A stretch of 36,227 nt of DNA from Candidatus Vogelbacteria bacterium (GTDB lineage Bacteria > Patescibacteriota > Minisyncoccia > Phycocordibacterales > UBA12445): the NCBI GenBank assembly GCA_016215345.1, contig JACRKD010000012.1:1-36227 (forward strand). Reading direction: 5' to 3'. Under the pieces are notes generated by a model. The model worked only from the letters and a program-made list of their open reading frames with translations, ran no database searches and was not told where the DNA came from. Position numbers and translations under genes: made by a program. Of this stretch, positions 4,318-32,076 are shown in pieces (positions within the stretch are counted from its first letter, which is position 1; each line of letters begins with the position of its first letter).

Positions 4318-5421
4318 ATGAAAAAGAATTTTCTTAAGAGAATCACGCGGCTTTCCATGCCAACTGTCCTCTCTCTACTCTTGGTAACGGCTGTTGCTTC
4401 AGCTGCGACCACCATCAGTACTAATATAACTACAGGTGGTACCCTTTCGGTTACAGGGGCCTCAACATTAACCGGTCTCTCTACTCATGTTGCCGGTTTC
4501 GTATCTCAGGCATCATCAACAGTGGTTGGTGCTTTCACCACAACCGGTGCTAACGCATTTGGTAGTACACTGGCTATTACAGGTCTCTCTACCCATGTTG
4601 CCGGTTTCGTATCTCAGGCATCATCAACAGTGGTAGGAGCATTTACCAACACAAATCTTGCTTCTCTAAACGGCGGGGCTTCGACGACAAATCTATCCAC
4701 CTCTGGTACTCTTTGGGTGGGTGGTAGAGCCACCACAACTGCTAGCACCGGGAACATAGCGACAGCAGGAACCCTATCTGTTACCGGTCTATCGACACTG
4801 GTTGCTGGTTTCGTATCTCAAGCATCATCTACGGTGGTAGGCGATCTAACTGTCACGGGTACATTCACACCGACACAAACTGCCGCCACAACATTCGCAG
4901 TTGGAGGAGGATACACTTCCGGAGGATCAGGTTCAACCTTATCGGCTGATGGAGATCTATCTTTGAACGGCGCGCTCAACATTAACGGCTGGGCGACCTC
5001 AACATCAGCCGGGCTGTTCACAGCAGGTGGATCTCTGCGAGCTTCCTCGACGCTACAGGCCACAGGAGCAACACAACTTTACAGTACCCTAACAGTTGAC
5101 AGTACATCTATCTTAACCGGCCTCGCTTCTCTAAACGGTGGAGCTTCAACAACAGCTTTGTCAGTATCGCAGACACTTATGGTAAATGGTCATGCTACGA
5201 CGACGTCTCTTGGAAGAATTCTAACGGACTCAAGCCTATCCGTTGCGACAACTTCAACAGCTAGAATGATTAACGCCGGATCTGGGTCAGCAACAACGAC
5301 TATCTATCTCGGTAAGGCCTGCTTCCTATTCACAATGCCAGACGATACCTCTCTCTACTACTGGCCACAGTCTGCTGGGACTCTTGGTGGTTGGGCAACA
5401 TCTACAGCATCTTGTTTCTAA
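4318..5421 (+). CDS. Secreted Thr/Gly/Ser/Ala-rich beta-strand repeat protein, probably a surface or fibre protein
   Basis: Signal peptide ending AVASA; internal repeats TGLST(H/L)VAGFVSQASSTVVG x3 and LASLNGGASTT x2; C-terminal domain with two Cys. Confidence 0.8.
   Translation: MKKNFLKRITRLSMPTVLSLLLVTAVASAATTISTNITTGGTLSVTGASTLTGLSTHVAGFVSQASSTVVGAFTTTGANAFGSTLAITGLSTHVAGFVSQASSTVVGAFTNTNLASLNGGASTTNLSTSGTLWVGGRATTTASTGNIATAGTLSVTGLSTLVAGFVSQASSTVVGDLTVTGTFTPTQTAATTFAVGGGYTSGGSGSTLSADGDLSLNGALNINGWATSTSAGLFTAGGSLRASSTLQATGATQLYSTLTVDSTSILTGLASLNGGASTTALSVSQTLMVNGHATTTSLGRILTDSSLSVATTSTARMINAGSGSATTTIYLGKACFLFTMPDDTSLYYWPQSAGTLGGWATSTASCF
4474..4838 (+). repeat. Intragenic direct repeats (53 bp, three copies)
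   Basis: 4474-4526 and 4582-4634 differ at one position; 4786-4838 is a more diverged third copy. Confidence 0.9.
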
Positions 5422-5444
5422 GCCATTAACTTAATACCTAAGTT

Positions 5445-6344
5445 ATGAAAAATTATTATAAAACAATCCTAGTGGCGTCTGCCCTAACACTGCTAGGTCC
5501 GCTACAGGCGCTAGCCCTGAATGATGTTACCCTAGAAAGCGGAGGAGACGCCATCATAAATGTAGCCGGCATAAATCTTACATTATCTCCCGCCTCGGTG
5601 ACGGATTCGGTGCAGGTTGATAGCAGTAGCTTCACCGTTACCATTTCCAACAACGGATCTATGACAATTGTATCCACCGACAGACGAACTATGACCTTTA
5701 GCCAACCGGATGGACAAAGCCCACTCCTGACAACGACCCTAGTCTGTACCACGGCGGACAGTACATATACAATAGGGAACCCAACAGCTGGGGCCACAAA
5801 CCTACAAATAACGGTTACCCCAACAACCAACACTTGCTCTACTAGTGGTGGTGGAAGCGGTTCTAGCGGAAGTGGTAGTACGACTGGTGGTGGAGGTGGA
5901 GATCCTTATGCCGGAACGAGAGTGACCACTACAGCGGCCGTAAAGTCAGCAACAGTAACGAAACCAGTGGTAGTAACACCAACGCCTGTTGCAACTACCG
6001 TTACTCCAGTGGCAACTACAGCTTCCCAATCTCCTCTGGTGACACTAAAGGTTGGGCAATCAAATCCTATAGTTAGAGTGATTCAGGTCATACTAAACCT
6101 TGATCCAAAAACTAAGGTAGCGTCATCGGGTCCTGGTTCGCCCGGAAAAGAAACGGCCGTCTTCGGTAATCTGACTGTCAATGCCATAAAGAAATTGCAG
6201 GCTGCCAGCGGAATAGCCAAACAAGGAGATGCCGAGTATGGAACGCTAGGCCAGAAAACGGTGCTTAAGCTGATAGACGTATTAGTCGAGAGAATAAAAG
6301 TTCTTCAAGACAAACTGAATCAACAAAAAGCTTCTGGCAATTAA
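5445..6344 (+). CDS. Secreted protein with a C-terminal peptidoglycan-binding-like domain
   Basis: Signal peptide, beta-rich domain with a Cys pair, Gly/Ser and Thr/Pro linker, then LKVG.S...V..IQ..LN...GPGSPG.ET..FG.LT..AIKKLQ...G.LG.KT. Confidence 0.82.
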   Translation: MKNYYKTILVASALTLLGPLQALALNDVTLESGGDAIINVAGINLTLSPASVTDSVQVDSSSFTVTISNNGSMTIVSTDRRTMTFSQPDGQSPLLTTTLVCTTADSTYTIGNPTAGATNLQITVTPTTNTCSTSGGGSGSSGSGSTTGGGGGDPYAGTRVTTTAAVKSATVTKPVVVTPTPVATTVTPVATTASQSPLVTLKVGQSNPIVRVIQVILNLDPKTKVASSGPGSPGKETAVFGNLTVNAIKKLQAASGIAKQGDAEYGTLGQKTVLKLIDVLVERIKVLQDKLNQQKASGN

Positions 6345-6360
6345 ATAAAGCTACAAGAGG

Positions 6361-6392
6361 GGTCGGAACACATAGAAGGTCCGACCTTTTTT
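6361..6392 (+). terminator. Rho-independent terminator
   Basis: GGTCGGA-N12-TCCGACC-TTTTTT, 16 nt after the stop. Confidence 0.7.
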
Positions 6393-6419
6393 GCCGCTTG
6401 AATCCCCCTCCCCCTTTTT

Positions 6420-7058
6420 TTAATTTAGATATTTGAAGTCTTTACTGAAGAACCTTCGAGCAAGACAAAAGATGGTATAGGTGATGAAATAAGCGGCAAA
6501 AACATCTATCGAGTAATGAAGATGCCCCAACAAGACGCTGGCCGCCAGAACTATGGAAATAAAAACAAAAGGCAAGCGAAGCCTTTTATTATCCCAAAAG
6601 GTCAGGGCGAGAAGAAAAGGAAAACCGGTGTGGCCGGAGAAGAAAAGATCGCCGGTACCATTAAGCCCTAGGAGATTCAGCAACTTGCCATCACCGAGAG
6701 TAATACTATCTGGCGATGGAGCTATGTGGGTGAGGGTCATAAAAACGGCCCTGATCACAATGAATAACGCTACACTTTTAACTACAAAAGGCAGTCTCTT
6801 AGGCTCTAAAATAATCAAGACGGCAATAAAAAGTATTAAAAATAATGCGCCATAGATTACAATAATTTCCACATTCAAGGTCGGAATATTGTCTAGTATT
6901 ATATCGTTTACGAAATTACTCTGGCGGGACGCGGCATAGTTATTTGTAAAATAGTTGAAAACTAAACTAATCAGCAAAAAGAACAAACCGCCGATAGCAG
7001 ATGAAGCGTAATCTTTATCAGCCCAGTTATGTTTATGTTTATTAAGGGTTTCTTGCAT
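6420..7058 (-). CDS. Sphingomyelin-synthase-like (PAP2 C-terminal family) integral membrane phosphotransferase
   Basis: GDLFFSGHT and HYSIDV...Y match SMS motifs D3 and D4; about six TM helices. Confidence 0.8.
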   Translation of the reverse strand: MQETLNKHKHNWADKDYASSAIGGLFFLLISLVFNYFTNNYAASRQSNFVNDIILDNIPTLNVEIIVIYGALFLILFIAVLIILEPKRLPFVVKSVALFIVIRAVFMTLTHIAPSPDSITLGDGKLLNLLGLNGTGDLFFSGHTGFPFLLALTFWDNKRLRLPFVFISIVLAASVLLGHLHYSIDVFAAYFITYTIFCLARRFFSKDFKYLN

Positions 7059-7067
7059 ATATCATGG

Positions 7068-8258
7068 TCAATTATTTGGCAACCGTTGATGTATTATATC
7101 ATTATAAAAACGCTCCAGGGATCTGGTAACACTCCCTCTAGAATAATTAAGCGCCAAACTGCGACTATTATTAGAAAAACTTCTTGCCATCTCGCCGTCC
7201 CTTGTAAGAAGAATGATTTTCTCCGCCATATCGCGTAGATCGCCTGGAGTAAATAAGAGGCCGTTCACCCCTTCCTTCACAATCTCTGGGATCCCGAGCG
7301 CCCTGGCTCCAATGACAGGAAGCCCCGCGGACATAGCCTCCAAAACAGAAAGAGGCATGTTTTCGCTATCGCTAGCCGTTACGAAGACATCGCTAGCCTG
7401 CAAAACTTCAACCAATTCACCGCCGCGCTTGAAACCAACAAAGGAGACATTCTTTCCGATCCCCAAATCCTTGACTAGTAACTCGATCGCCCCCTTCTCC
7501 GGGCCATCACCAACAATAACCAATCCTATGAACGGTTCGCTCTTTAAGGCCATAGCGAAAGCCCTTACAACTTGGTCAATCTTTTTTTCATAGCTTACAC
7601 GCCCCATGTAAACAAGGGTCTTTTTTCTAAAACCCAGGGAGCTCTTGAGGCGCTCTTTGGCAATATCATCCCCTGCAGGCTTAAAGAGTTCAGTATCAAT
7701 CGCGTTAACGATAATCTCCATCGGCCTCTTAAGACCATAATTTTTTAGCTCTTGGGCTAGAGATTTACTTGGGCTTACAACAGCATCACAGCAATTATAA
7801 TAAAAATTTACATAGTTCCAAGAAAAGCTCCGCGCCCATGCATAATCTAGCTTAACGTGTTTAAGATATTTATCATAAAACGTATGATGAGTACCAACTA
7901 TCGGTATATTGAACAACTTGGCGGCAAGAACCGCCTCCCATCCGATACTAAATGGGGTGTGGGCGTGAATTATGTCTAACCTAACCCTCCTGGCATGGTT
8001 AATCGCAAGACCGAGAGGTAGCGGTATCCTCTGGTCATGATAAACCATCGCCGGTACTGATGGTAGACGGATAATTGTAAACGGATAATCCCCATCACCA
8101 TTTAACTCCCCGCCCTGCCGCCTTAACAAACTGCCGGCAACGGTATACACAAAAACCTCATGACCAAGATTCCCAAGCGTGATAGCCGAGGTCAAGGCGG
8201 TATTCGCTACGCCGTTTACCTGTGGCGGGAAAGTATCACTAAATATTCCTATCCTCAT
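7068..8258 (-). CDS. GT4 glycosyltransferase resembling diacylglycerol alpha-glucosyltransferases
   Basis: MRIGIFSDTFPPQVNGV, DIIHAHTPFSIG, GTHHT.Y..YLKH, GRVSYEK, E-x7-E (ENMPLSVLE). Confidence 0.88.
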   Translation of the reverse strand: MRIGIFSDTFPPQVNGVANTALTSAITLGNLGHEVFVYTVAGSLLRRQGGELNGDGDYPFTIIRLPSVPAMVYHDQRIPLPLGLAINHARRVRLDIIHAHTPFSIGWEAVLAAKLFNIPIVGTHHTFYDKYLKHVKLDYAWARSFSWNYVNFYYNCCDAVVSPSKSLAQELKNYGLKRPMEIIVNAIDTELFKPAGDDIAKERLKSSLGFRKKTLVYMGRVSYEKKIDQVVRAFAMALKSEPFIGLVIVGDGPEKGAIELLVKDLGIGKNVSFVGFKRGGELVEVLQASDVFVTASDSENMPLSVLEAMSAGLPVIGARALGIPEIVKEGVNGLLFTPGDLRDMAEKIILLTRDGEMARSFSNNSRSLALNYSRGSVTRSLERFYNDIIHQRLPNN

Positions 8259-8941
8259 ACTCGTAATCGTCTAAGTTGGGCAAACTGTCGCGCTATTCCA
8301 GACACAGATGTTGTCTTTAAAATATCACCAAACATGCGCATATCCGCTATAATTCCAGAAACAACCCCCTGTTTGCTAGCTTTAAGCGGACTACGGACAT
8401 TATCCCAAAAAACCACTCTTATTCTGCTCTTACTTGCCATGATCACATTATTAAAAAAAGTCTCTATCCCAAAACGAGAAAGTCTGCTAATCTCCTCCAG
8501 CCGATCCTCAATGAGGCTTTTTTTGAAAACTCTCTCTCCTGTTAATATGTCCATGCCGACAAGCCTGTAAAATATATCGGCAAAGAAACTGATCCTCCTT
8601 ACACTAAAACTTACATCGGCGACTCCAAAAGTAACCGGCTCTATCAGCCTGCTCACGTTATCAGCATTCAATCCTATCAAGTCGGCATCCAAAAGAAAAA
8701 TTGTATCCCCCGCAGACTCTCTTACACCGGTAACCACCGCCAGACTCTTGCCCTTGTTTACGCCGTGATTAATCATACGGACTCCCGGAAACTTTCCGAC
8801 AACACTCGAAGTATTATCGGTTGAATGATCATCAACCACGATAACCTCATCTATAAGCGGGTGTTTATAAACTACCCCTAGGACATTTTCTATTCTCGGA
8901 GCCTCATTATAGGCCGGTATTATGCAAGAAACTTTTGACAT
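8255..8941 (-). CDS. GT2 family glycosyltransferase
   Basis: IIPAYNE, VVDDHSTD, NKGKS.A, LDAD; ATGA-coupled to the GT4 gene. Confidence 0.9.
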   Translation of the reverse strand: MSKVSCIIPAYNEAPRIENVLGVVYKHPLIDEVIVVDDHSTDNTSSVVGKFPGVRMINHGVNKGKSLAVVTGVRESAGDTIFLLDADLIGLNADNVSRLIEPVTFGVADVSFSVRRISFFADIFYRLVGMDILTGERVFKKSLIEDRLEEISRLSRFGIETFFNNVIMASKSRIRVVFWDNVRSPLKASKQGVVSGIIADMRMFGDILKTTSVSGIARQFAQLRRLRV

Positions 8942-8951
8942 ACAATCTATT

Positions 8952-9557
8952 TTACAACCTCTCTAAATCTTTGTTACTTTTCTGTCTATACCAATAAAAC
9001 ATACCCGATAGTAAAACCAGGGCAAACAAAAGAAACATTGACGCGTAATTCAGACTATCATTTATCTGTGAAAACGCGTGGCCAAAAAAGTAGCCTATGA
9101 GTAATAACACTAACGACTTTGGTAATGTACCGATAAAGTTATACCAGATAAATTGCCAAAATGGAACATTAGCCATACCGGCGGCAAACAAAACAATAGT
9201 CCCGGCGGCATGCGTCAATTTACCGATAAGAAGTGTCTTGCCGGGATGCTTCTCGAAGTGGTTCTCCACTGCCTGCACCCTATCATCTGTTAGACCGAAA
9301 TGGTGCCCCCACTTATGAATAAAACTATGTCGACCGAAGTGGCCCATGCCATAGTTTATGGCGTCTCCAATCAGATCCCCGACAACTACAATGACGTAAA
9401 CAAACCAAATATTCAGATTGAAGTAACCAAAGGCCGGGGATGAGAGCATTCCGGCAATCATGGTAACAACCGGCCCCTCGATTATAGACAGTGGGAAAAG
9501 AATTATATATTTATATTGGATGAGAAGAGCAATGACTTCCCCATATGTAAAAAACAT
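8952..9557 (-). CDS. DedA family membrane protein
   Basis: IEGP, GDLIGD...Y.MG..G, AG...VPF.QF...N..G motifs; start placed at ATG 9557. Confidence 0.9.
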   Translation of the reverse strand: MFFTYGEVIALLIQYKYIILFPLSIIEGPVVTMIAGMLSSPAFGYFNLNIWFVYVIVVVGDLIGDAINYGMGHFGRHSFIHKWGHHFGLTDDRVQAVENHFEKHPGKTLLIGKLTHAAGTIVLFAAGMANVPFWQFIWYNFIGTLPKSLVLLLIGYFFGHAFSQINDSLNYASMFLLFALVLLSGMFYWYRQKSNKDLERL

Positions 9558-9567
9558 CCTGTAAAAA

Positions 9568-10377
9568 TTAAAGCTGACTCTCAATGTTATTTATAAACTC
9601 TTCGGCAGTCGCAAACCCCATCTTCTCTTCTTCGGTAAGCTGCCGATCTTTTCGCCGGTCCAGATAAATCTGAAGATATTTTCTCGCTTCGGAAACAAAC
9701 TGTTTATTATTGGTAAGTCCCGAAATGTTATCAGACCTCAACCGGTATAAACCCAAAACTTTTTCTATATAACCGAATTCATATTTTTCGCTAATTCGAT
9801 TCCAAAGCTCAACATCTTCGTGGATTCTTAAACTCTCATTGAACCCTCCGACATCCTCAATAACCTTTTTTCTGATTACTGCCGAAGATATCTGAATTGG
9901 TGAATTATCAATAAAAAACGGAACAGTGAACTTATTTTGGGGGGGATTTTTTTGGAAACGCGACCTTGTCTCTGTCACATAATTGACACCGATTTGCTGA
10001 TCCGCATACACGACAAAAGTATCCTGATGAGATTTTAAGTAGTTCATGGCGGTGGACAAAAAGTCCCTCGCCCATAGGTCATCGGCATCTAGAAAAGCCA
10101 GATACTCCCCTCTGGCCTCCTTAATACCAAAGTTCCTCGCCGCCGCGGCTCCCTTATTTTTAGTCTCGAAAAATCTAAGCTGGAGATCCACTTGCCCTGA
10201 TTTTGGTAGGAAGATAGATTTAACGTACTCTTCTGTACCATCATTAGAGCCGTCATCAACAACTATAATTTCATAATCAGAAAAATCCTCTGCCAAAACA
10301 CTTTTTATCGCCTCCTCTAAAAGATTCCGACGATTATAAGTTGGGATTATTACGCTAACCAAAGGCACTTTCTCCAC
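9568..10377 (-). CDS. GT2 family glycosyltransferase
   Basis: VSVIIPTYNR, VVDDGSNDGT, G...ARN.GI..A.GEY.AFLDADD, GGFNE, ED.ELW.R; start probably GTG 10377. Confidence 0.92.
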   Translation of the reverse strand: MEKVPLVSVIIPTYNRRNLLEEAIKSVLAEDFSDYEIIVVDDGSNDGTEEYVKSIFLPKSGQVDLQLRFFETKNKGAAAARNFGIKEARGEYLAFLDADDLWARDFLSTAMNYLKSHQDTFVVYADQQIGVNYVTETRSRFQKNPPQNKFTVPFFIDNSPIQISSAVIRKKVIEDVGGFNESLRIHEDVELWNRISEKYEFGYIEKVLGLYRLRSDNISGLTNNKQFVSEARKYLQIYLDRRKDRQLTEEEKMGFATAEEFINNIESQL

Positions 10378-10478
10378 AATAATAGTATATATCACCTGCC
10401 GGCCGGTATCTAGCCAAAAGCCTGTAACCCACCAAAAACCTCATAAATTAAGGAGTTATTGGCCATATGACTATATAG

Positions 10479-10931
10479 CTACCTCTGAAATTCTACCTCA
10501 AATGGATACATACCCATCCCGCAACTTCCCCATAACACACCGAAGGGCTGAACACCAAGATCAATATCTGTGCTTCCCGTTTGCGGAAGTATTTTGCTGA
10601 ATCCCAAGCTTGGAATAATGACCGCCGCCGAACAGTCAAAAGTGCCGTTTGTATTAATTCGCAAAACTGTCGGCATATCGGCTTTCGCGATACTCCTATA
10701 CGGTAGATATCCACCCTTGGCCCGGATTTCAACTATCTGACGACCGCCCACCAAGGAGACATTATCACCCGTAGTCGCGGAAGAAAAACCACTGCTGTCC
10801 CCTCCGCTAGAATTAACGAAGGCAATAGCGCCGACGACGATCAGCCCGGAAATTAAAACTGACACAACCACAGATTTCATCCCGCTAGGTACGCCAACTC
10901 CGTCTCCTAATTTTTTTTTATTTTTCGTCAA
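10479..10931 (-). CDS. Membrane-anchored cupredoxin-domain protein (CupA-like)
   Basis: TM anchor, KGGY.P, DCS and SCGMGMY motifs. Confidence 0.82.
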   Translation of the reverse strand: MTKNKKKLGDGVGVPSGMKSVVVSVLISGLIVVGAIAFVNSSGGDSSGFSSATTGDNVSLVGGRQIVEIRAKGGYLPYRSIAKADMPTVLRINTNGTFDCSAAVIIPSLGFSKILPQTGSTDIDLGVQPFGVLWGSCGMGMYPFEVEFQR

Positions 10932-10934
10932 ATT

Positions 10935-11957
10935 TTAAAAGTTAAAAACCGGAGGGAAGAGCCCGATCACAACCAAACTATTGATAATATTAAACAAGGC
11001 AAACAAGATAACTATAAGACCGGCGGTTTTAAAGAAAACCCCAGACCCGGAGCTACCCTTGATACTAAAAGAACTAAAACTTATTAAAGCCAAAACCGGC
11101 AGGGTCCCAAGGGCGAATGATAACATCGTTAATCCGCCAGAAAGAAAACTCCCTGCCGACAGCGTATAAAGTTGCATCGATTGTGTAAACCCGCATGGCA
11201 GAAAAAAAGTTGCGATACCAACCAAAAAAGGTGTAAACGTGTGATTAAAATTAGCAACTCCGATCGCATATCTGGAAATAACCTTCGGCATGCCGATTTG
11301 GAAACGTTTCGCAAGGTGAAAGGTATCTAACAAATTTACCCCCATTATTAACATAACCAGACCGACAAAGAAATTCAGAAGGAATGTCATGGTCGTATTC
11401 AAAACGAAGGCAGAACCCAGAGCGCCAATCATGCCACCGAGAATAAAAAACGAGGCAACGCGACCGATATGGAATAGAAGTTGCGGCCTCCATTTATCTC
11501 CCTCTTTGGCAAATGTAGCCGACATAGACAAGAGAAGTCCTCCGACAACCGCCATACAAGTTGAGAGAGAAGCGACCACCCCGATCATAAAAACCCCTCC
11601 GTAAGAAAGTTCCCCGCTTCCTATTAAATTTAATAAACCGGCTTTCTGTAGCAAAACAAACAACGCAATAAATACCGTAGCTATCGGTATCGCAATCTTG
11701 AACTCTGACCAATTCACTTCCTTTATTGGTCTTGCGATAGACAAGGAGTACCCGTGCTTTCGTAACTTATGCGAAAGTTCCATGGCCACGGCTTCCGGTG
11801 ACCTACCTCCAAAATTACCAGTTACTACGACAGAGTGGTCTTTGAGACTAGACTTAGCACTCGTGATATAAGATACACCTCGAAGTTCATTCTCGATTAA
11901 AAGTACGCACAACTTGCAGTGCATTCCAGCGACATAAAACGTAAAAGTTTGTTCCAT
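10935..11957 (-). CDS. HMA domain fused to a DsbD_2/TauE-like multipass membrane protein
   Basis: GMHCKLC HMA motif; TM motifs STCMAVVGG, FH.GR, FFLPCGFTQ, FALGTLP. Confidence 0.88.
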   Translation of the reverse strand: MEQTFTFYVAGMHCKLCVLLIENELRGVSYITSAKSSLKDHSVVVTGNFGGRSPEAVAMELSHKLRKHGYSLSIARPIKEVNWSEFKIAIPIATVFIALFVLLQKAGLLNLIGSGELSYGGVFMIGVVASLSTCMAVVGGLLLSMSATFAKEGDKWRPQLLFHIGRVASFFILGGMIGALGSAFVLNTTMTFLLNFFVGLVMLIMGVNLLDTFHLAKRFQIGMPKVISRYAIGVANFNHTFTPFLVGIATFFLPCGFTQSMQLYTLSAGSFLSGGLTMLSFALGTLPVLALISFSSFSIKGSSGSGVFFKTAGLIVILFALFNIINSLVVIGLFPPVFNF

Positions 11958-11961
11958 ATTC

Positions 11962-14196
11962 CTAACTATTTAGTCTAAACCTGTTTAGAAGTAGCGAGTT
12001 GCCCACAACAGAGACAGAACTTGTAGCCATGGCAACGGAGGCAAAAATCGGGTTCATCAATATCCCCCAAATAGGATAGAGTATCCCCATCGCAACAGGT
12101 ATCAGGAGCACATTGTACGCGAATGCCCAGAAGAGATTCAATTTGATCGTTCGCATAGTCCTCTTTGAAAGTAATATAGCGCCGGCCACTGTTCTCAAAT
12201 CTTTGTTGATCAAGGTTATATCGGCCGCCTCAATCGCGACATCCGTTCCTGTGCCCATGGCGATACCGACATCTGCCGCAACCAGAGCCGGCGCGTCATT
12301 TATTCCGTCGCCAACCATAGCGACTATTCTGCCCTCGGCTTGGATTTTCCTCACCTCTGCCTCTTTTTCTTGGGGCAAAACTTCAGCCAGCACTCTTTTA
12401 ATCCCAACTTGTGAAGCTATCGCCGTAGCCGTCCTCATATTGTCTCCGGTTATCATAATAGGTTCTACACCCATCCCTATCAACATAAGAATCCCGGCCT
12501 TCGATGACTCTTTGACTGTATCGGCAACGGCAATTAGTGATTCCAGGTTACCATCGATAGCGAGCATCATTACCGTTTTCCCCTCGCCTTCTAACCTTTC
12601 GACCTCTGCCAAATTATTGCCGAGCGAAACAGTTTCTTTGTCCATCAACCTCTTATTACCCAAAATAACACGTCTACTGTCCAGCACCCCTTCTACTCCG
12701 TGGCCGGGAATAGCCCTAAACCCTTCAGCCCTAACTAACGCAATGTTTTCCGTCTCTGCTTTACTCACAATACTTTCAGCCAGTGAGTGTTCCGAGCCTT
12801 TTTCCAAAGATGCGGCAAATTTGAGCGCCTCATCATGGGAAACGCCACCGACCGTTATTATATCCGTCACCTCCGGTTTGCCTTTTGTTAGAGTTCCTGT
12901 TTTGTCAAAAATTACAGTAGTCACCTTATGAGCGGTTTCTAAACTCTCCGCATCTTTAATCAAGATTCCACTCTCCGCGCCCTTGCCCGTTCCAACCATT
13001 ATAGCTGTCGGCGTCGCGAGCCCCATAGCGCAAGGGCAAGCGATTATAAGCACGGCGATCATATTAAGCAGCGCGTAGAGAAGCGCCGGTGCTGGTCCCC
13101 AAACATACCAACCAACGAAAGTAACAATGGACAACATTAAAACTATCGGTACAAAATTGGCAGAGACCAGATCGGCCAATCGCTGTATTGGCGCCTTACT
13201 CCCCTGCGCGTCCTCAACCAATTTAATGATTTGCGCGAGCATGGTTTCGGATCCAACCTTAGTGGTCTTAAAGGTAAAACTGCCGTTCTTGTTTAATGTC
13301 GCCCCGACAACAGTATCCCCGACAGTTTTGTCCACAGGCATACTCTCACCGTTTATCATGGACTCATCTATTGACGACTCACCTTCTAAGATAACCCCAT
13401 CAACAGGAATCTTTTCTCCGGGACGCACACGGATTACATCTCCTATCAACACATCTTTTATCTCTATATCAATCTCCTTGCCATCTCTCAAAACCCTAGC
13501 GGTCCTTGCTTGAAGGCCGATAAGTTTTTTAATCGCTTCAGATGTTCCCGCCTTGGCCTTAGCTTCGAAGTAACGACCGAGAAGAATCAAGCCAATAATG
13601 ATTGTAGATACATCGAAGTAGGGCATCGGATCAATTCCTATCTCTTGAACAACTTTCGGAAAGACCGTAACAAAAGCTGAATAGAGATACGCGACGGTCG
13701 TACCAATAACAACTAGAGTGTCCATATTGGCCGTTCTGTGCTTCAAGGCTGGAATTGTCGCTCGGTAAAACGCAAAACCTGCCCAGAACTGCACCGGGGT
13801 CGCCAAAATTAATTGCACCCAAAATTCTCGCAAAATTTTCGGCGCCGTCTCCATAAGTCCGGGGAAACTACCCCAGAGAATTAACGCCCCAAGTGTCAAA
13901 CTCACAATAACTTTAAATACAAGAGAATTTAGTTCCCTTAATTTTTCCTGTTTTTCTTCATCTTCTGATTGAAGCTCCTCACCAATCATCGCCTCATATC
14001 CAACATTTGAAACCGCAGAACTTATGTGTTCATCCGTAACCAAAGCTGGATCGTAATCAACGGTCGCCTTAGCACTGGCCAAATTTACAGACGCGATAGA
14101 AACCCCTGGAACTTTTTTAAGCGACCCTTCGATCATGGCCACGCACGACGCGCAGTGCATCCCCTTAATCGAAAAAGTTTTTTTGATATTGGCCAT
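11962..14196 (-). CDS. copA: Copper-translocating P1B-1 ATPase
   Basis: GMHCASC metal-binding domain, [25 protein letters not shown] and MATSS Cu(I) signature residues. Confidence 0.96.
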
Positions 14197-16161: not shown

Positions 16162-17127
16162 TTATTTTTTTAACAACAATAAAATCAATCCGATAATTCG
16201 GTCTTTATGCGATGGATCACTTTCAGCAACAAGAACGGTAAGTGCTGTAAGCGCGGAGGGGGTTAATTTAGACGTATCCAGGATATTAGCTTGCTTTAAA
16301 AACCAGACGAATGCAAAAGCGCCCGATCGCTTATTACCGTCGGTATAAGGATGATTCTTCACCATAAAATACAAAAGGTGTGCGGCTTTTTCTTCTACGG
16401 TCGGATAAAGTTCATTACCGCCAAAGGATTGCATTACGTTACCAACAATTCCCGCGACCGATCCCGCGCTCCGCTCATGACCAAATATTTCTGTCGCTTC
16501 ATCTTTTCCGATTAAAGTTCGACGTAGTTCCTTCAACCCTTCCGATACATTGGTAACGGTAATATCGACTTTTTTCTTTGTCAGTTTACCTTTTGGTGAA
16601 CGCTCCTTATCGTATGCATCAAGCGAGATCCATGTATCTGCAAATAGAGTAATTAGTTCAACCACATCTTTCGGATTAATCGAGGAACATGAAGGCAGAA
16701 GTTCCTTAACATCATCAACCATTCTCAAAAACTGCGCATAATTTTTCGCAACACGGCTTTTGTTTATTGCGAACCCATCCACAATATAGTTTCGTAATGT
16801 CTTCGTCGCCCAACGTCGAAACTCTATCGCGACCCTTGAATTTATCCTGTACCCAACACCCAAAATTACGTCGAATGAATAGAGGGTTAGCGGTTTATCG
16901 GAATTTGCATTATGCATTTTTTGCATATTGCTTTTCTCATCAATTTCACCATCTTTAAATATGTTATGAATATGACGAGACACTACCGACTGATCCACAC
17001 CAAAAAGATCTACAATCTGTGCCTGTGTAGCCCATATGGTCTCATGCGAAAAATCCCCGCGAAGTTCGATCGCACCATTCTTCGCCTGATATATAATCAC
17101 CCCTTTATTTTTCTGTGTGTTTTTCAT
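16162..17127 (-). CDS. RhuM-like N-terminal domain plus Fic/Doc domain protein
   Basis: ETIWATQAQI..LF, VGYRINS..A..FRRWA, and the Doc-type motif HPYTDGNKR. Confidence 0.92.
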   Translation of the reverse strand: MKNTQKNKGVIIYQAKNGAIELRGDFSHETIWATQAQIVDLFGVDQSVVSRHIHNIFKDGEIDEKSNMQKMHNANSDKPLTLYSFDVILGVGYRINSRVAIEFRRWATKTLRNYIVDGFAINKSRVAKNYAQFLRMVDDVKELLPSCSSINPKDVVELITLFADTWISLDAYDKERSPKGKLTKKKVDITVTNVSEGLKELRRTLIGKDEATEIFGHERSAGSVAGIVGNVMQSFGGNELYPTVEEKAAHLLYFMVKNHPYTDGNKRSGAFAFVWFLKQANILDTSKLTPSALTALTVLVAESDPSHKDRIIGLILLLLKK

Positions 17128-17150
17128 CCTCAAGATTCTATCACATTGTT

Positions 17151-25326: not shown

Positions 25327-27480
25327 TTAAGCAAATTTTATTAAAGCTTTAAGTTTTTTATAATACCGTTCGCGTTGCTTGAACTGTTTCTCCAAAAATG
25401 GAACCTGTGTATCTCGATAATCAACGATTGTTTTTTGCTCACCAATATCTCGAAGTCGTCCCGTGTATTGGACGAGCTTGCCTTCAAACGAAAAAGGGAA
25501 TGCTAATATGAGGCAAGAAATTCCTCGAATATCTATACCTTCGCCCAAAAATTGACCAGTGGAGAGAATAACTCCATAATGCCCGGATTCAATCTGCTTA
25601 AGTTTTGATTTCCTTGATCTGGCCGAATCATCACCAGAAATTACGATTGTTTCGCATTTACCCTTAAGATACATAGCTAGAATTTCAAGATGCTCTTTTC
25701 TCTCGCTTAACACGAGCAGTCTTTTGCCAGCACTAATCTTGTTTAAAATATCCTCAACGATCATCTGATTTCTGGTAGTATCAAAACATACAATCTTGGC
25801 CAAAAGCTGAAAATGGTCGGTAGTAAATTTAAATGGGACGACTAAAGTTGTCGTGCGGATTAAAACTTCTGGTGGTTGATGCGGAAGAATAGAAACAGGT
25901 TCAATGTCCGAAGCTTCCATACGAGCAATAATATCTCCGATATATACATAGATTAGTTTTTCGTCATTATGCTTTCGTTTGGGAGTGGCCGTTAGCCCAT
26001 AGATATATTTTGGGTTCAGTTGTGCAATAACTTCACGAAAAGTAGCAGCTGGGATGTGATGACATTCGTCGACAATAATCGTGCCGAATTTATCCTTTAA
26101 CTCCGAAAGGTCACCTTTGTGAGCCAAGCTTTGTAATAAACCAACAGTGATTTGTTTACCTAATTTTTTCTTTGTCCCGGAATACTGGCCGATATGTGCT
26201 TTCGCAATACCTAAAAATGTTTGAAGCCTTTCAATCCACTGATCCAGCAATTGTTTGCGATGGACAAGAATAAGAGTTGATAATTGTCTGCGAGACACAA
26301 GCTCTAATCCGATTATTGTTTTACCACTTCCGGATGGTGCAACAATAACGCCTTGATCACATCCCATTGCTATTTGAACAATTGGAACTTGCGCTGGTGT
26401 CAGCTTTATCTCACTTTGATAGGAAGTTTGTTCAAAATTAGGAATGTCGAATCGTGTTGTATAGGCGATCTTATTTTCTTTAAGAAATTTAATCAGAATT
26501 TGCAAAAATCCTCGAGGTAAAGAAATAAAATCCGCGGTTTCGTCAATTAGTTTAAAATACTTCTGAACCTTATAAATTGATTTCCCTAATCTTCGTTTGG
26601 TGAGATATTCGGTATTAAGAAAATTGAGTTCTTCTTTAAGAAAATTAATGAGTCCAGGGGAAAGCTCAGACCGTTTCAAATCAATCTGATTGCTTACCAA
26701 AATTCCCAATCCACCACTAATTGGCATATTTACCATCGCTTTTCCTGCATCTACAAATAACGACTGGCGTATTGAATCTAACTCAGTAATAGTATGCCGT
26801 TTTACAGTGGCTAGAAATTGCCATTGATCAGGAAATGGTTTACTAGTTTCTAAATCGATAAACATTGCATTGCCAGTTGTTACTGATCCACCTTGAAGTG
26901 GTAAGGCAATAAGGTTGCCAAAGCCGGCTCCAGTCAATGTGTCTTGGTTAGGAAATAGTCGATCAAAACTGACTTCTTTTTCAAATTCAGATACATGAAA
27001 AGCTCTGCGTATGAGTTCAAGCGCGATTTGTCGGCTTTTATAACAAGGATAGTTTTCAGAAAAGAAAATCCAAACATGGCCACCGTTACCAGAACGAGAA
27101 CGTTCGAGATACGCAGAAAGTTTAACTTCTTCACAAACCTGCAAAAACGATTTACTATCCCTCAACCAATTCTCACCGTCAAAATCAGCTGCAATAAAAT
27201 ATGAAGTATTGTCAGATAGAATTGGACATATACCAACAACGTGCTGACCAATAAGATGTTTTTTAACAACTTCTTTGGTTAGAGGTAGGAGTTTCTTATT
27301 TTCAAAATCTTTCATTGACCCACCACGTCGCTTATGCGCCATGAATTCATCCCAATTAAAATCATAGGCTGGGCTGTATCCAGATCGTCCTTCCTTTTCC
27401 CAGCGACGTGCGTAAACATCTGTTCTTTCTCGGAACAGCGACATAAATAACTCAAGCTGTTGTTCACTGATAGAAATCAT
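25327..27480 (-). CDS. AEP/primase-like (TOTE-type) domain fused to an SF2 DEAD/DEAH (ResIII-like) helicase
   Basis: N-terminal LF..R.DVYA.RW, ADFD, ERSRSGNGGHVWIFF, DRLFPNQD, GNLIALPLQ; C-terminal APSGSGKT, DECH, LTATP, EGID, QYTGR. Confidence 0.88.
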   Translation of the reverse strand: MISISEQQLELFMSLFRERTDVYARRWEKEGRSGYSPAYDFNWDEFMAHKRRGGSMKDFENKKLLPLTKEVVKKHLIGQHVVGICPILSDNTSYFIAADFDGENWLRDSKSFLQVCEEVKLSAYLERSRSGNGGHVWIFFSENYPCYKSRQIALELIRRAFHVSEFEKEVSFDRLFPNQDTLTGAGFGNLIALPLQGGSVTTGNAMFIDLETSKPFPDQWQFLATVKRHTITELDSIRQSLFVDAGKAMVNMPISGGLGILVSNQIDLKRSELSPGLINFLKEELNFLNTEYLTKRRLGKSIYKVQKYFKLIDETADFISLPRGFLQILIKFLKENKIAYTTRFDIPNFEQTSYQSEIKLTPAQVPIVQIAMGCDQGVIVAPSGSGKTIIGLELVSRRQLSTLILVHRKQLLDQWIERLQTFLGIAKAHIGQYSGTKKKLGKQITVGLLQSLAHKGDLSELKDKFGTIIVDECHHIPAATFREVIAQLNPKYIYGLTATPKRKHNDEKLIYVYIGDIIARMEASDIEPVSILPHQPPEVLIRTTTLVVPFKFTTDHFQLLAKIVCFDTTRNQMIVEDILNKISAGKRLLVLSERKEHLEILAMYLKGKCETIVISGDDSARSRKSKLKQIESGHYGVILSTGQFLGEGIDIRGISCLILAFPFSFEGKLVQYTGRLRDIGEQKTIVDYRDTQVPFLEKQFKQRERYYKKLKALIKFA

Positions 27481-27507
27481 ACATTTTAAGTGTGAGGCAA
27501 TCGGCTA

Positions 27508-28440
27508 TTATCTTACATCCGTGCGGTCTAAAATTTTGAAACCATCCATAATGGCTTCACAAAGAAAATCCTCCAATTGGCTCTGGTCTTCTTTTGTTTG
27601 AGCTTTATAGAGATACGTGTAATAAAGCTTTTTCTGTTCCTGGCGAATTATCGCAGGAGCGAAATTTGCGCCAAGTAGCATTGCATTCATAAGTAAACGA
27701 CCAACACGGCCGTTTCCATCTCCGAATGGGTGAATCTGTTCAAACTTACTATGCACGCCAGCCGATAAAGAGATAATGTCTTGGGTTTTTTCAGTAATAC
27801 GAGCCATAACCTCTGAGATAAGTTTTGGAACACTCATATAATTTGCTGTTGGCAAATTAACACCGGTAATTCTGACGGCGTGATTACGATAAACACCAGC
27901 ATCCGGACGAACGCCATTCATGAGAATGCTGTGGAGTTTAAGCACAAGAGCTTCGTCAACTTTTTCTTTCTTAGCAATATTATCAAATAAATAATTCAAG
28001 GCCGTCTGGTGATTTTTTGCCTCTAGTTGTTCAGTCAAGCTTTTATTTGGCAAAGCTGCGTTGTCAAAAAGAATAGCCGCAGTATCGGGTTCGGTTAGAG
28101 CACTGCCCTCAATGCTGTTGCTGTGATAAGTAAGTTTCAAAATAAACTGATCACGAATATCTGGACTAGCCAAAATTTCATTTATAACACTTTTATGTTC
28201 TCCTGATTTTTGCCCCAGAGCTTGTTTTTTGGCCGTCAATTGATCAGAGGAAATTGTTTTCTGTCCGGTTACTTCCAAAAAAAGGTTGTCAATTAAAGCC
28301 TGCATTTTGGGTCGTGGATTGGATTTGCCGGTCCACCAACTGTTGAAAGCGGCAAAAGAAACGCCAAACCTTAAAGCCAGCTTGGTCTGGGTTAGCCCCA
28401 ACATTTTTTGAATTATCTCCAATTTTTGACGGGTATTCAT
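27508..28440 (-). CDS. Fic family protein with an N-terminal XRE-type HTH
   Basis: HTH LTQTKLA..FGVS....N.W..G; inhibitory motif SNSIEGS; catalytic HPFGDGNGRVGR. Confidence 0.92.
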   Translation of the reverse strand: MNTRQKLEIIQKMLGLTQTKLALRFGVSFAAFNSWWTGKSNPRPKMQALIDNLFLEVTGQKTISSDQLTAKKQALGQKSGEHKSVINEILASPDIRDQFILKLTYHSNSIEGSALTEPDTAAILFDNAALPNKSLTEQLEAKNHQTALNYLFDNIAKKEKVDEALVLKLHSILMNGVRPDAGVYRNHAVRITGVNLPTANYMSVPKLISEVMARITEKTQDIISLSAGVHSKFEQIHPFGDGNGRVGRLLMNAMLLGANFAPAIIRQEQKKLYYTYLYKAQTKEDQSQLEDFLCEAIMDGFKILDRTDVR

Positions 28441-28455
28441 AATAAGCAAATTTAA

Positions 28456-29378: not shown

Positions 29379-32076
29379 TTAAACTAATTTCCTTCGGTAA
29401 AAAAATTTCTGATCTCCTCCACGACGATAATCGATCCGGCGACCGGAATGACGATAAGCCACTCTGAAACCGACAGTGGTACCGTGTGTAATATTCCCTG
29501 CAAAAATGGGTGTGTGTAAAGCAGAAAGCTGTAATAACATGACAATCACAGTAGCCACAATCAGAAACTTATTGGACAATGGATTCATCTGCAATATAGA
29601 TCTACTTTCAGATCTACAATTCCATGCGTTAAGCCACTGAAAAACAGCAAGGACCGTAAGAGACATCGTCCATGCCTTTGTCATATCGTCCGCGATATAA
29701 TACCTAAATATAAATAACGTGCCAACCGCCATAGGTAACGCCATAAAAAATATTCTCTTCGCCATAAGTTCGTCCACGATCCATTTCTTAGGACGCTCAA
29801 ACCTTCCGCGCATGAGCCCACTCTCCTTGGGCTCCATAGCAAGCGCGACATTGAGAAAACCATCGGTAACAAAGTTGAGCCAGATAATTTGCGCGGCGAC
29901 CAGAGGTAGCGGGTATCCTAAAACAAGCGCGCCGGTAATCACTAATACTTCCCCCATACTCGTGGAGAAAAGATATAAAAATAACTTTTTTGATTGTCTT
30001 ATAAATTCCCCGCCCCTCTTCAGCCGCAGAAACTATCCCAGCGAAGTTGTCATCGAGAAGAACTATATCTGAAGCCTCCTTTGCCACCTCGGTACCAATT
30101 TTCCCCATCGCAACACCGAGATCAGCAGCCACAAGAGATGGGGCATCGTTGACTCCATCCCCTGTCATGGCCACAACTTCTCCTCGGCTACGGAAGGCCT
30201 CTATAATCCGCATCTTATGAGCCGGTGAAACTCGCGCAAAAACACTCGCGTGAACAAGTTTCCTGGCCAGCTCTTCACTGGAGACTCTATCAACATCCTC
30301 ACCCGTAAGAACAATGTCGCCTTGTCGCCAGATATCAGCCTCCTTCGCAATGGCTTCTGCTGTCAAACTATGATCTCCGGTAATCATAACAACACGCATA
30401 CCAGCGTCTTTAACTTTTTTCATTGCTTCCCTAACCTCCGAGCGAAGCGCGTCACTCATGCCAAAAAATCCTACGAATGTAAGCGGGGGTGGAGCAAGTG
30501 GGTTGATACTTCTTTCAACGCCGGAATTCATAGCATACGCCATAACCCGAAAGCCACCCTTAGCTAGTTTGTGAAAAACGGCCTTAAGTTCTTTACGTCG
30601 ATCTTCGCTTAGAAGCAAAACCCCATCCCTCCCGTCCGGACTCGATGAAGCTGGATGCCAAATATTTTTACAAAGTTCCATGACATTTTCCGGCGCCCCG
30701 ACAACCGTAAGGAAATTGTTGTCTCCAACTGAATGAACCGTCGCATGATATTTTCTACTGTAGTCAAAGGGTAGTTCAAAAATCTTCGGCGACTCATCTT
30801 CTAGCACATTATGGTGAAATCCGACTTTTTCTGAAAATACTAGCATGGCGGCTTCGGTAGGGTCTCCGATAATCTTCCAGCTGTCAGTTTCTTTTATAAA
30901 AGAAGATCTGGCATTAGCGCAAAAGGCTGCGATCTTACCGCTAAAGAGGAGTTCGAGATGATTCAACGGATCAATAACCTTGCCTTCAAAAACAATCTCC
31001 CCTTTTGGTTCATAACCATTTCCAGTAATTTCAAAAATTTTACCGTCGACGTACACGCGCTGGAGAACCATCTCGTTTCGCGTAAGTGTTCCTGTCTTAT
31101 CTACGGCGATAATCTTTGTTTGTCCTAAAGCTTCCACCGCCTGAAGGCGCTTTACGAGAACATTCGGCTAACGCCATTTGCTAAAACTAAAGTCGTAACG
31201 ATGGGCAATCCTTCCGGAATTATAGACACGGCAAGCGCGACAGCGACAGTAAACATCTCTCTTAATGATTCACCCGAAAGAATCCCAGCGGCTATCAAAA
31301 CAGTACTGATAATACCGACAGCAATTATAATAAGACGGGGTAAATAATGAATATTGGTTTTCAGGGGAATCTCGGTGTCAATTGAAGAAATCTCCACCGC
31401 TATTTTCCCAATTTCCGTGTCCAGTCCGGTCGCGACCACAACTGCGCTACCGTTTCCGCTCAAAACGTTGGTACCCTTGAACACCATGTTCTTCTGATCT
31501 GCAACGGGGACATTACCACTCGATGCGGCCGGAATAGTCAGTTCCGTTTTGGTTACGGGCTCCGATTCCCCCGTTAAGCTCGCTTCATCAACTTTAAGGG
31601 TACTCGCAAATATAACACGCGCATCAGCCGGGACCTTCTCTCCTTCCCGCAACACAATAATATCTCCGGGCACAACTTCTTTATCTAAAACCGTGATGTC
31701 TTTATCATCTCGCAGTATCGTTGCCGAAGTCTCTGTAAAGTTCTTCAAGGCGAGGAGGGTGTTTTGCGCCCGAACCCTCCCATACCGTACCAACAACAGC
31801 ATTAAAAATGAGCACCGTGAAAATTATGGAGGCATCTACAGTTTCTCCCATGGCCAAAATAGTACCCGCCGCAAGGAATAGAATATAAATAAGAGGACTC
31901 TGAAACTGACGAAAAAAGATAACAAAAACACTGTCCACCTTACCTTCGGGTAGTTTGTTTAATCCGTATTCCTTCAGACGCAGAGCTACTTCCTCGCTCG
32001 TCAAACCGCCTTCACGCGAACGAAGCTTCCCAAGAACATCGAGGGGCGTTCCCGCATACCATGGAATTTGTTGCAT
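29379..32076 (-). pseudogene. Type IIA (Ca2+-like) P-type ATPase broken by about five indels
   Basis: Consecutive fragments carry GLT.EE...RL..YG.N, LTGES, IPEGLP, DKTGT, MITGD, TGDGVNDAP and QIIWLN.VTD. Confidence 0.9.

Follow-up and report, generated by a model that had tools for sequence, protein, structure and literature searches.

We analyzed a 36,227-nucleotide (nt) stretch of DNA, hereafter the window, which constitutes contig C2 of a 704,745-bp, 44-contig genome (completeness 95%) from a Candidatus Vogelbacteria bacterium, and we describe here a cassette of five co-directional open reading frames (ORFs) on its minus strand. In reading order, the ORFs encode a family-2 glycosyltransferase (GT2a), a DedA/VTT membrane protein, a second family-2 glycosyltransferase (GT2b), a family-4 glycosyltransferase (GT4) and a PAP2_C protein related to sphingomyelin synthases (SMS) (Table 1). 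A preliminary description of the window had reported five co-directional genes with gaps of about 10 nt or an ATGA overlap, and the junctions agree with it. Gaps of 10 nt separate the GT2a stop from DedA and DedA from GT2b, the ATG of GT4 shares an ATGA with the TGA of GT2b, and 9 nt lie between GT4 and the PAP2_C gene. GT2a has in-frame GTG starts at 10395, 10377 and 10368, of which the preliminary description used 10377 and the last is preceded by GGAG, and the DedA ORF extends open beyond its ATG at 9557 to a TTG at 9584.

Table 1. Positions of the cassette genes, of the motifs of the PAP2_C protein and of the downstream hairpin in the window (aa, amino acids)
Feature	Positions	Strand	Remarks
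GT2a, family-2 glycosyltransferase	9568..10395	-	First gene; 266-275 aa depending on the start; PF00535 125.2 bits
DedA/VTT membrane protein, non-canonical	8952..9557	-	201 aa from the ATG at 9557; PF09335 69.9 bits
GT2b, small soluble family-2 glycosyltransferase	8255..8941	-	228 aa; PF00535 80.1 bits
GT4, Mgs-like glycosyltransferase	7068..8258	-	396 aa; PF00534 143 bits and PF13439 105.6 bits
PAP2_C protein, predicted SMS-family six-helix lipid phosphotransferase	6420..7058	-	212 aa; PF14360 43.2 bits
D1-like motif NDIILDNIP, aa 51-59, predicted first outer loop	6882..6908	-	Aligns with SMSr PDIFLDSVP
D2-like segment K87-R88...R103-x6-T110	6729..6800	-	Aligns with SMSr LLRCFTMFVT
D3 motif GDLFFSGHT, aa 136-144, holds His143	6627..6653	-	Aligns with SMSr GDYMFSGHT
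D4 motif HLHYSIDVFAAYFITY, aa 179-194, holds His181 and Asp185	6477..6524	-	Aligns with SMSr HEHYSIDVFIAFYIT
Perfect 7-bp hairpin, GGTCGGA / 12-nt loop / TCCGACC	6361..6386	-	34 nt past the PAP2_C stop

The sequence and the modeled structure of the last gene product support its placement in the SMS/PAP2_C branch of lipid phosphotransferases, apart from ordinary undecaprenyl-pyrophosphate (Und-PP) phosphatases. In Pfam, the protein passed PF14360 (PAP2_C; cut-off, 27 bits) and failed the generic PAP2 model PF01569, with 19.1 bits against a cut-off of 27.2; the PAP2_3 and PDCT models were also unmatched, and no NCBIfam model matched the protein. The preliminary description had argued for the same branch from motifs, and the segments that it quoted are all present, namely NDIILDNIP, KR...R103-x6-T110, GDLFFSGHT and HLHYSIDV..AAY (aa 179-190). 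We take the D3 and D4 motifs of the family to be G-D-x3-S-G-H-T and H-Y-[ST]-x-D-V, which contain the catalytic His, His and Asp, and we assume that D1 lies in the first outer loop and D2 in the third helix. On this basis, and by alignment to the PDB sequence of human SMSr, the catalytic residues were assigned as His143, His181 and Asp185. Across 24 aligned homologues, D52, K94, R103, T110, S141, G142, H143, H179, H181 and D185 were invariant, together with L55 in D1, the remainder of F139-H143 in D3, and Y182, I184 and V186 in D4. The basic pair ahead of D2 is spaced differently, and animal SMS has a Cys in front of D3 that this protein lacks. Ordinary phosphatases carry the motifs C1 (K-x6-R-P) and C3 (S-R-x5-H-x3-D), whose Lys and Arg bind phosphate. 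The PAP2_C protein shows no K-x6-RP anywhere along its 212 residues, and the C3 position reads S174-V175-x5-H181-x3-D185, with Val175 in place of Arg.

Comparisons with solved structures led to the same family. The family profile matched human SMSr (8ijq) with E=1.8e-5 over positions 18-199 of 215, placing DIxLD, R-x6-T, GDxxFSGHT and HxHYSIDV opposite the same motifs of SMSr; the other hits were just two chance matches to TatB, and no Und-PP phosphatase appeared among the PDB sequence matches at E up to 1. The AlphaFold (AF2) model of the protein (pLDDT 86.2) contains six long helices, and its top Foldseek match was again SMSr (TM 0.63, E 1.8e-3). VIA-align to SMSr gave a Z of 14.8, with 188 residues aligned, an rmsd of 3.4 and 22% identity, followed by inositolphosphorylceramide (IPC) synthases (Z 12.5 and 12.2), LpxE (11.5), LPP1 (10.9) and PgpB (9.4 and 8.2), and the margin for SMSr is modest because all PAP2-fold proteins score at Z 8-12. 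Lys, Arg and His residues cluster at both termini and in the loops at 87-88 and 158-161. This charge pattern, together with the glycosyltransferase domains that are fused to either end of related proteins (see below), would fit an N-in/C-in topology, from which we infer that the catalytic triad lies outside.

The protein thus shares with human SMSr, SMS1 and SMS2 the six-helix core, the D1-D4 motifs and the His-His-Asp triad, with SMSr as its best fold match. It differs from them in being a bacterial protein of 212 aa without a SAM domain, in coming from an organism that shows no trace of ceramide, and in its genetic company of DedA and glycosyltransferases, to which fusion with a GT2 is added in some relatives. 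PDCT and IPC synthases exchange head groups between a phospholipid and a lipid alcohol. The plant PDCT (ROD1) and the fungal and plant IPC synthases belong to the same superfamily, the latter as second and third fold matches; unlike plant PDCT, however, the cassette protein matches the PAP2_C model alone. The family is large, with 3399 proteins at E<=1e-3 in a near-length search and 978 representative clusters in an exhaustive search, and a few of the 3399 bear the name "sphingomyelin synthase family protein" or "phosphatase PAP2-related protein". A language-model and structure look-up listed related PAP2_C clusters, with Bacteroidota and Myxococcota as their commonest phyla; these are leads without alignment. 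In the literature searched, which left out most subscription journals, we found no characterized bacterial SMS-family member and no link between SMS and Patescibacteria, and the accessible part of a paper on the lipocone superfamily mentions neither SMS nor DedA (PMC12419801). According to a biochemical study, purified human SMSr has phosphatidic acid (PA) phosphatase activity and phospholipase C (PLC) activity on phosphatidylinositol, phosphatidylethanolamine (PE), phosphatidylglycerol (PG) and phosphatidylcholine, and it frees diacylglycerol (DAG) from these glycerophospholipids without ceramide; the PA phosphatase activity is the strongest in vitro, and the enzyme is a far better hydrolase than transferase (PMC7988496).

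The PAP2_C gene keeps its company in other genomes. A scan of a genome collection confirmed at least 583 relatives, of which we studied the best 80 loci, all 44-54% identical to the query and hence a sample biased to close relatives; their names include Uhrbacteria, Doudnabacteria and Patescibacteria group. In 79 loci we counted the neighbors that lie no more than 6 kb from the PAP2_C gene: a cassette-type DedA (45 loci), a GT2 of 243 aa (32), a GT2b-type protein (10), GT4s of a second subtype (19), of the window type (15) or related to BgsA/Dgs (8), and an alpha/beta hydrolase (11). Among the 42 loci that come from other species and have at least 4.5 kb on both sides, 29 have both DedA and a glycosyltransferase at a distance of up to 4.5 kb from the PAP2_C gene, and 8 have neither. 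In 31 of the 71 loci with enough upstream sequence, the gene that ends just ahead of PAP2_C is one for a glycosyltransferase, and locus L079 (DedA-GT2b-GT4-PAP2_C) comes nearest to the gene order of the cassette among the best 80. Judged from these counts, the adjacency of DedA, glycosyltransferase and PAP2_C genes exceeds chance. Queries for GT-C, Wzx and UbiA proteins gave no match in the best-80 PAP2_C loci, and the seven large unassigned membrane ORFs there proved to be a P-type ATPase, two Nramp and two MFS proteins, a Cache sensor and one unknown.

Natural fusions point in the same direction. Among the cluster representatives, P0149 and P0154 are GT2-PAP2_C proteins and P0146 is a PAP2_C-GT2 protein, and their GT2 domains are of the 243-aa type (37-61% identity). 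P0149 is encoded on a contig of 288,767 bp in a Dehalococcoidia metagenome-assembled genome (MAG), and P0154 in a Vogelbacteria MAG; the GT2 domain of P0149 passes the GT21 model (37.2 bits; cut-off, 21.7). Both fusion orders fit the N-in/C-in topology predicted for PAP2_C. We also screened an even sample of 401 Patescibacteria genomes, including 339 of high quality, and found the PAP2_C family in 19 of them (~5%; 16 of the 339). A broad DedA profile cross-matches other DedAs (216 of the 401 genomes at 1e-20), and its top band, at least 148 bits, was therefore used; on this measure a cassette-type DedA occurs in 12 of the 19 PAP2_C-positive genomes versus 16 of the 382 negative ones, a comparison in which related genomes are not independent and the threshold was picked after the list was seen. 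The two genes lie no more than 2.6 kb apart in six carriers. As a separate observation, locus L089, from a genome scored negative by the main family profile, encodes a divergent 203-aa PAP2_C protein (6382-6993) directly upstream of a cassette-type DedA; this protein passes PAP2_C, PAP2_3 and AtPDCT1_2 (30.5 bits; cut-off, 27). The pairing of DedA with a phosphotransferase therefore extends past the profiled family.

The DedA of the cassette is a VTT/DedA protein (cut-off for PF09335, 33.9 bits) of a non-canonical kind, scoring 52.5 and 31.5 bits with the UptA equivalog models, whose cut-offs are 250 and 300. Its first re-entrant helix keeps the acidic residues: of the 42 cassette DedAs, 41 have E27 and all have D65. 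Todor et al. (bioRxiv 10.1101/2023.01.04.522824) tie the binding of undecaprenyl phosphate (Und-P) to a pair of basic residues, spaced six apart, at the tip of the second such helix. In all 42 cassette DedAs, Lys takes the first arginine position (segment K113...G119 in the window protein), and no Arg or Lys follows at +1 to +9; the equivalence of these positions to R130/R136 of YghB was drawn through a paralogue on contig C33 and not from an alignment to YghB. This C33 DedA keeps both arginines (GRFFPVIRT) and passes the E. coli DedA equivalog model (244.5 bits; cut-off, 236).

The glycosyltransferases are less equally tied to the module. GT2a matches EpsD and TuaG best in NCBIfam at ~110 bits, far under the cut-offs, and no orthologue was found in the best-80 related loci (top score, 67 bits), so its membership follows from spacing alone, the 10-nt gap to DedA. 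The five-gene unit that had been proposed for the window therefore holds for a DedA-GT-PAP2_C core that is linked in relatives, but not beyond spacing for GT2a. GT2b gave weak matches over its N-terminal half to AglJ, GpgS and PpgS (45-51 bits). The best NCBIfam match of GT4 is the alpha-monoglucosyldiacylglycerol synthase Mgs (NF049988), aligned over essentially the full length (residues 1-391 on positions 1-390 of 398). In six loci (L008, L031, L042, L052, L071 and L072), a BgsA/Dgs-like GT4 comes after an orthologue of the window-type GT4 (344-414 bits). In L008, this second GT4 scores 285.8 bits with the IagA/BgsA model, under its equivalog cut-off of 460, and 215.9 bits with Dgs, the processive DAG glucosyltransferase, and the next family reaches 65.6. 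Mgs/Dgs pairs and BgsB/BgsA pairs occur in Mollicutes and Firmicutes, and the tandem resembles, by analogy, such pairs. The likeness of GT4 to Mgs is thus a lead, and the tandem partner in relatives lends it backing. The PDB sequence matches of GT2b, the 243-aa GT2 and GT4 were all generic GT-A/GT-B relatives and were set aside.

The background of the genome bears on what such a module might do. According to Probst et al. 2020 (PMC7242380), the membranes of Patescibacteria are built of ordinary acyl lipids, which these bacteria are mostly unable to make, and the source of the lipids and their change after uptake are open. Searches of the present genome, whose 95% completeness limits any absence, turned up neither PlsC, PlsY, CdsA, CDP-alcohol phosphatidyltransferase nor ketoacyl synthase, in line with the general lack of fatty-acid synthesis in CPR bacteria stated in the preliminary description; an LtaS-type sulfatase, DgkB, DgkA and BacA were likewise unmatched. 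With the synthesis, LtaS and DAG-kinase families unmatched, we found no further known route leading to DAG or away from it in the genome. A generic PAP2 protein is encoded on contig C43 (79.5 bits with PF01569; best NCBIfam matches to Und-PP phosphatases, 38 bits) next to a PMT_2 GT-C, and the Und-P roles are, to judge from their sequences, already covered by this protein and the canonical C33 DedA. In the 18 other PAP2_C carriers of the even sample, BacA was present in 13 and a generic PAP2 above cut-off in 14, each genome having at least one of the two. CdsA (PF01148) was matched in 75 of the 401 genomes, mostly as partial matches of ~60 residues in proteins of ~185 aa and at full length in ~8, with weak matches in 2 of the 19 carriers. 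Its co-occurrence with PAP2_C was rejected as a source of information; the lack of CdsA is general and does not set carriers apart from non-carriers.

Overall, we favor, with slightly less than even confidence, a reading in which the cassette is an accessory module for remodeling membrane lipids in a Patescibacterium auxotrophic for lipids: an outward-facing SMS-type enzyme would release DAG from acquired phospholipid, the glycosyltransferases would make glycolipid from it, and DedA would translocate lipid. Substrates, direction of flow, topology and the role of DedA are inferred here from the observed families, motifs, fold, conserved linkage and fusions and from the gene families that were not found. 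The six-helix enzyme, with its His143/His181/Asp185 site at the outer face, would attack the phosphodiester of acquired glycerophospholipids such as PE, PG and similar lipids; by analogy, an outward enzyme of SMS fold would be well placed for acquired phospholipid. The attack would release DAG, and the phosphorylated head group would pass either to water, as in a PLC, or to an acceptor hydroxyl, as in a transferase. DAG would reach the inner leaflet, where the Mgs-like GT4 may add the first sugar from a nucleotide sugar. GT2b, and perhaps GT2a, may extend the glycolipid, a task that could fall to the BgsA/Dgs-like GT4 or the 243-aa GT2 in relatives, and the non-canonical DedA may shift lipid from one leaflet to the other, either this glycolipid or the phospholipid that serves as substrate. 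The order phospholipid to DAG to glycolipid is favored because DAG is the acceptor of Mgs and because no other known source or sink of DAG was found.

Several observations weigh against this reading. The family is carried by 19 of the 401 genomes though nearly all of them lack a full-length CdsA; the cassette is therefore not the general answer of the phylum to lipid auxotrophy, and it is an accessory trait of a minority of the sampled Patescibacteria. The DAG-glucosyltransferase likeness claimed for GT4 stands as a best, full-length match with a suggestive tandem in relatives, but not as an assignment, since GT4 scores 160.6 bits against an Mgs equivalog cut-off of 400, BshA follows closely at 145.3, and its best solved relatives, BshA and MshA, are not lipid enzymes. 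The genome of the window has no BgsA/Dgs-like gene, the best match being the cassette GT4 itself (56.5 bits). Nor would PAP2_C be the sole head-group enzyme: contig C36 contains a two-domain PLD-type (cardiolipin-synthase-like) frame of 373 aa (C36:26158-27036), which may be another head-group exchanger. The best solved match of GT2b, and the second best of the 243-aa GT2, is dolichol-phosphate-mannose synthase (5mlz; 41.9 bits with GT2b), over the N-terminal half. Additionally, there are 13 loci with a cassette-type DedA in PAP2_C-negative genomes, L089 among them, with a GT4 or GT2 adjoining it in 10. In L096 the DedA lies between an ALG10-like GT-C and a 243-aa GT2, in L088 a Wzx-like protein is nearby, and in L086, L087 and L090 UbiA-HAD proteins stand beside it. 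GT-C, Wzx and UbiA neighbors are hallmarks of polyprenyl-linked glycans, so these loci would keep a polyprenyl-phosphate reading alive. The UbiA-family prenyltransferases are 473-522 aa long and flank a DedA-GT4-GT2b trio (L086:7592-9013, L087:5552-6973 and L090:5819-7387), and that of L086 shows a weak HAD-like match at its N terminus.

In such a polyprenyl-phosphate reading, the main rival, which we consider unlikely, GT2s, with or without GT4, would build sugars on Und-P or Und-PP inside the cell, and DedA would flip Und-P or an Und-P-sugar. PAP2_C would dephosphorylate Und-PP outside, or anchor a soluble GT2 and hand over Und-P, and the product would decorate the wall or surface proteins. 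Und-P is an intermediate common to all three protein families, and Todor et al. interpret DedA-PAP2 fusions as Und-PP dephosphorylation before flipping, in Und-P recycling, which likewise counts against lipid remodeling. PgpB, the BcrC/YbjG-type PAP2 proteins and the UptA-type DedAs belong to the same superfamilies as the cassette proteins and are, like them, membrane proteins; their active sites face outward, as is predicted for PAP2_C. The 5mlz matches and the neighbors in PAP2_C-negative genomes described above fit this reading, as does ArnC, lower in the list of solved GT2 matches. The GT2-membrane-protein fusions recall the mycobacterial Ppm1, a two-domain protein. Finally, the missing phosphatase motifs would be compatible with monoester hydrolysis, since purified SMSr works best as a PA phosphatase in vitro.

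However, the PAP2_C protein departs from PgpB and the BcrC/YbjG type in several points: it fails the generic PAP2 cut-off, lacks the C1 Lys/Arg-Pro motif, and has Val at the C3 Arg position. No Und-PP phosphatase is found among its PDB matches (E up to 1), and PgpB falls well under SMSr and the IPC synthases by fold. The cassette DedA differs from UptA in that the second basic residue is missing in all 42 proteins, and the genome contains a separate canonical DedA and a separate PAP2. BacA or a generic PAP2 is also present in all 19 PAP2_C-positive genomes, that of the window counted, GT-C, Wzx and UbiA are unmatched in the best-80 PAP2_C loci, and the BgsA/Dgs-like GT4 in tandem in six relatives points to DAG. 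We hold the polyprenyl-phosphate reading to be unlikely because of the lack of GT-C, Wzx and UbiA matches, the content of the seven membrane ORFs and the coverage of Und-P roles elsewhere in the genome.

The cassette could also serve a pathway like that of lipoteichoic acid (LTA), a proposal to which we attach a rather low probability. The glycosyltransferases would make a glycosyl-DAG anchor inside, and DedA, without the Und-P-binding arginine, would flip it outward. The SMS-type enzyme would take glycerol phosphate or ethanolamine phosphate from host PG or PE and attach it to the glycolipid or to a polymer of the wall, and GT4 would recycle the released DAG for the next round, all by proteins non-homologous to the glycolipid synthase, LtaA and LtaS of Firmicutes. 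In the LtaA/LtaS scheme of Firmicutes, a glycolipid synthase, a translocator and an outward phosphotransferase act together, and the cassette would follow the same logic of cytoplasmic anchor glycosyltransferases, a lipid translocator and an outward, DAG-releasing phosphotransferase. Similar to the Firmicute and Mollicute glycolipid pathways (Mgs with Dgs, or BgsB with BgsA/IagA, and LtaA and LtaS), it has a GT4 with a full-length best match to Mgs, placed in relatives in tandem with a BgsA/Dgs-like GT4. In contrast to these pathways, the GT4s fall below the equivalog cut-offs, the translocator is a DedA rather than an MFS protein, the fold of the outer enzyme is that of PAP2_C rather than that of a sulfatase, and GT2b occupies the place of the second GT4 of relatives. 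Neither an LtaS-type sulfatase nor a DAG kinase was found in the genome, and the cycle would be closed by GT4, which would recycle DAG. According to PMC7988496, SMS enzymes by definition transfer a head group to a lipid hydroxyl, although SMSr is far better at hydrolysis in vitro. The acceptor is without any evidence, and no polymer-related genes are conserved in related loci. The LTA-like proposal departs from the lipid-remodeling reading in the fate of the head group alone, which is invisible to sequence.

A true sphingolipid enzyme, which would place a phosphorylated head group onto ceramide taken from a sphingolipid-making host, appears very improbable. SMS family membership speaks for it, and Bacteroidota and Myxococcota, in which related PAP2_C clusters were commonest in the alignment-free look-up, make sphingolipids. 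However, the partner enzymes are DAG-type GT4s, the literature searched held no characterized bacterial member, and nothing sphingolipid-specific was found in the cassette or its relatives; no evidence pointed towards ceramide, which the preliminary description had named beside DAG. That the five genes are merely packed together in a small genome, as the lack of GT2a orthologues in related loci and an uninformative promoter and terminator scan might suggest, is hardly credible, and for the DedA-GT-PAP2_C core it is largely refuted by linkage across many species and by the natural fusions.

The surroundings of the cassette add context. A consensus promoter and terminator scan performed at chance (12 seen against 10.1 expected, and 7 against 5.0). 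A look-up of data sets that contain positions 6300-10500 listed none of RNA and one of DNA, a groundwater metagenome from which the window may stem. The hairpin at 6361-6386 lies between the cassette and a convergent plus-strand gene ending at 6344 and is a possible terminator between the convergent genes; the scan missed it because no T-run follows it. Upstream, after an 83-nt gap, the minus strand carries genes for a cupredoxin-like protein, a DsbD-HMA protein and a copper-type P-ATPase (10479-14196), and L064:10271-14033 has this trio as well, on the downstream side of its PAP2_C gene. Judged by conservation, these genes are not part of the module. On the plus strand, 4318-6344 encodes two Ser/Thr/Gly-rich proteins of 367 and 299 aa, with signal-like N termini and without a Pfam match, of which the first contains repeated GLSTHVAGFVSQASSTVVG units; these two, encoded convergently to the cassette, are probably surface proteins. 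A horizontal origin of the cassette was considered and discarded: there is no signal for it, and the GC content is even (0.41-0.44) across the window. Elsewhere on the minus strand, a cation P-type ATPase is split over four overlapping or adjacent ORFs (29379-32076; N-terminal, E1-E2, hydrolase and C-terminal domains), which suggests frameshifts or a decaying gene. At 25327-28449, also on the minus strand, a 717-aa protein with AEP-TOTE primase (269.9 bits) and helicase domains adjoins a Fic-domain protein, and a second RhuM-Fic protein is encoded at 16162-17133; these look like conflict-system genes. In about 20 of the 79 related loci, the cassette is flanked by a block of an ECF sigma factor, two small unknown proteins, an HlyD-type adaptor, an ABC ATPase and a MacB-type permease (for example, L009:9251-10936, L020:5297-6517, L027:1916-2608 and L062:2858-3439), a block that is not beside the cassette of the window. 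MacB-type pumps extract lipidic substrates from membranes, and a tie of this block to lipid traffic is possible by analogy.

The SMS family is known chiefly from eukaryotic sphingolipid synthesis, and here it appears in a new and conserved genetic partnership with DedA and glycosyltransferases. The cassette is thus a candidate for the remodeling of lipids after their uptake in Patescibacteria. If the lipid-remodeling reading is true, the large bacterial part of the SMS family would gain its first known function; the reading would also assign a substrate other than Und-P to a subtype of DedA, and it would mean that some ultra-small bacteria replace phospholipid by glycolipid. If instead the LTA-like proposal is true, host phospholipid would serve the surface of an epibiont in two ways, as building block and as activated donor.

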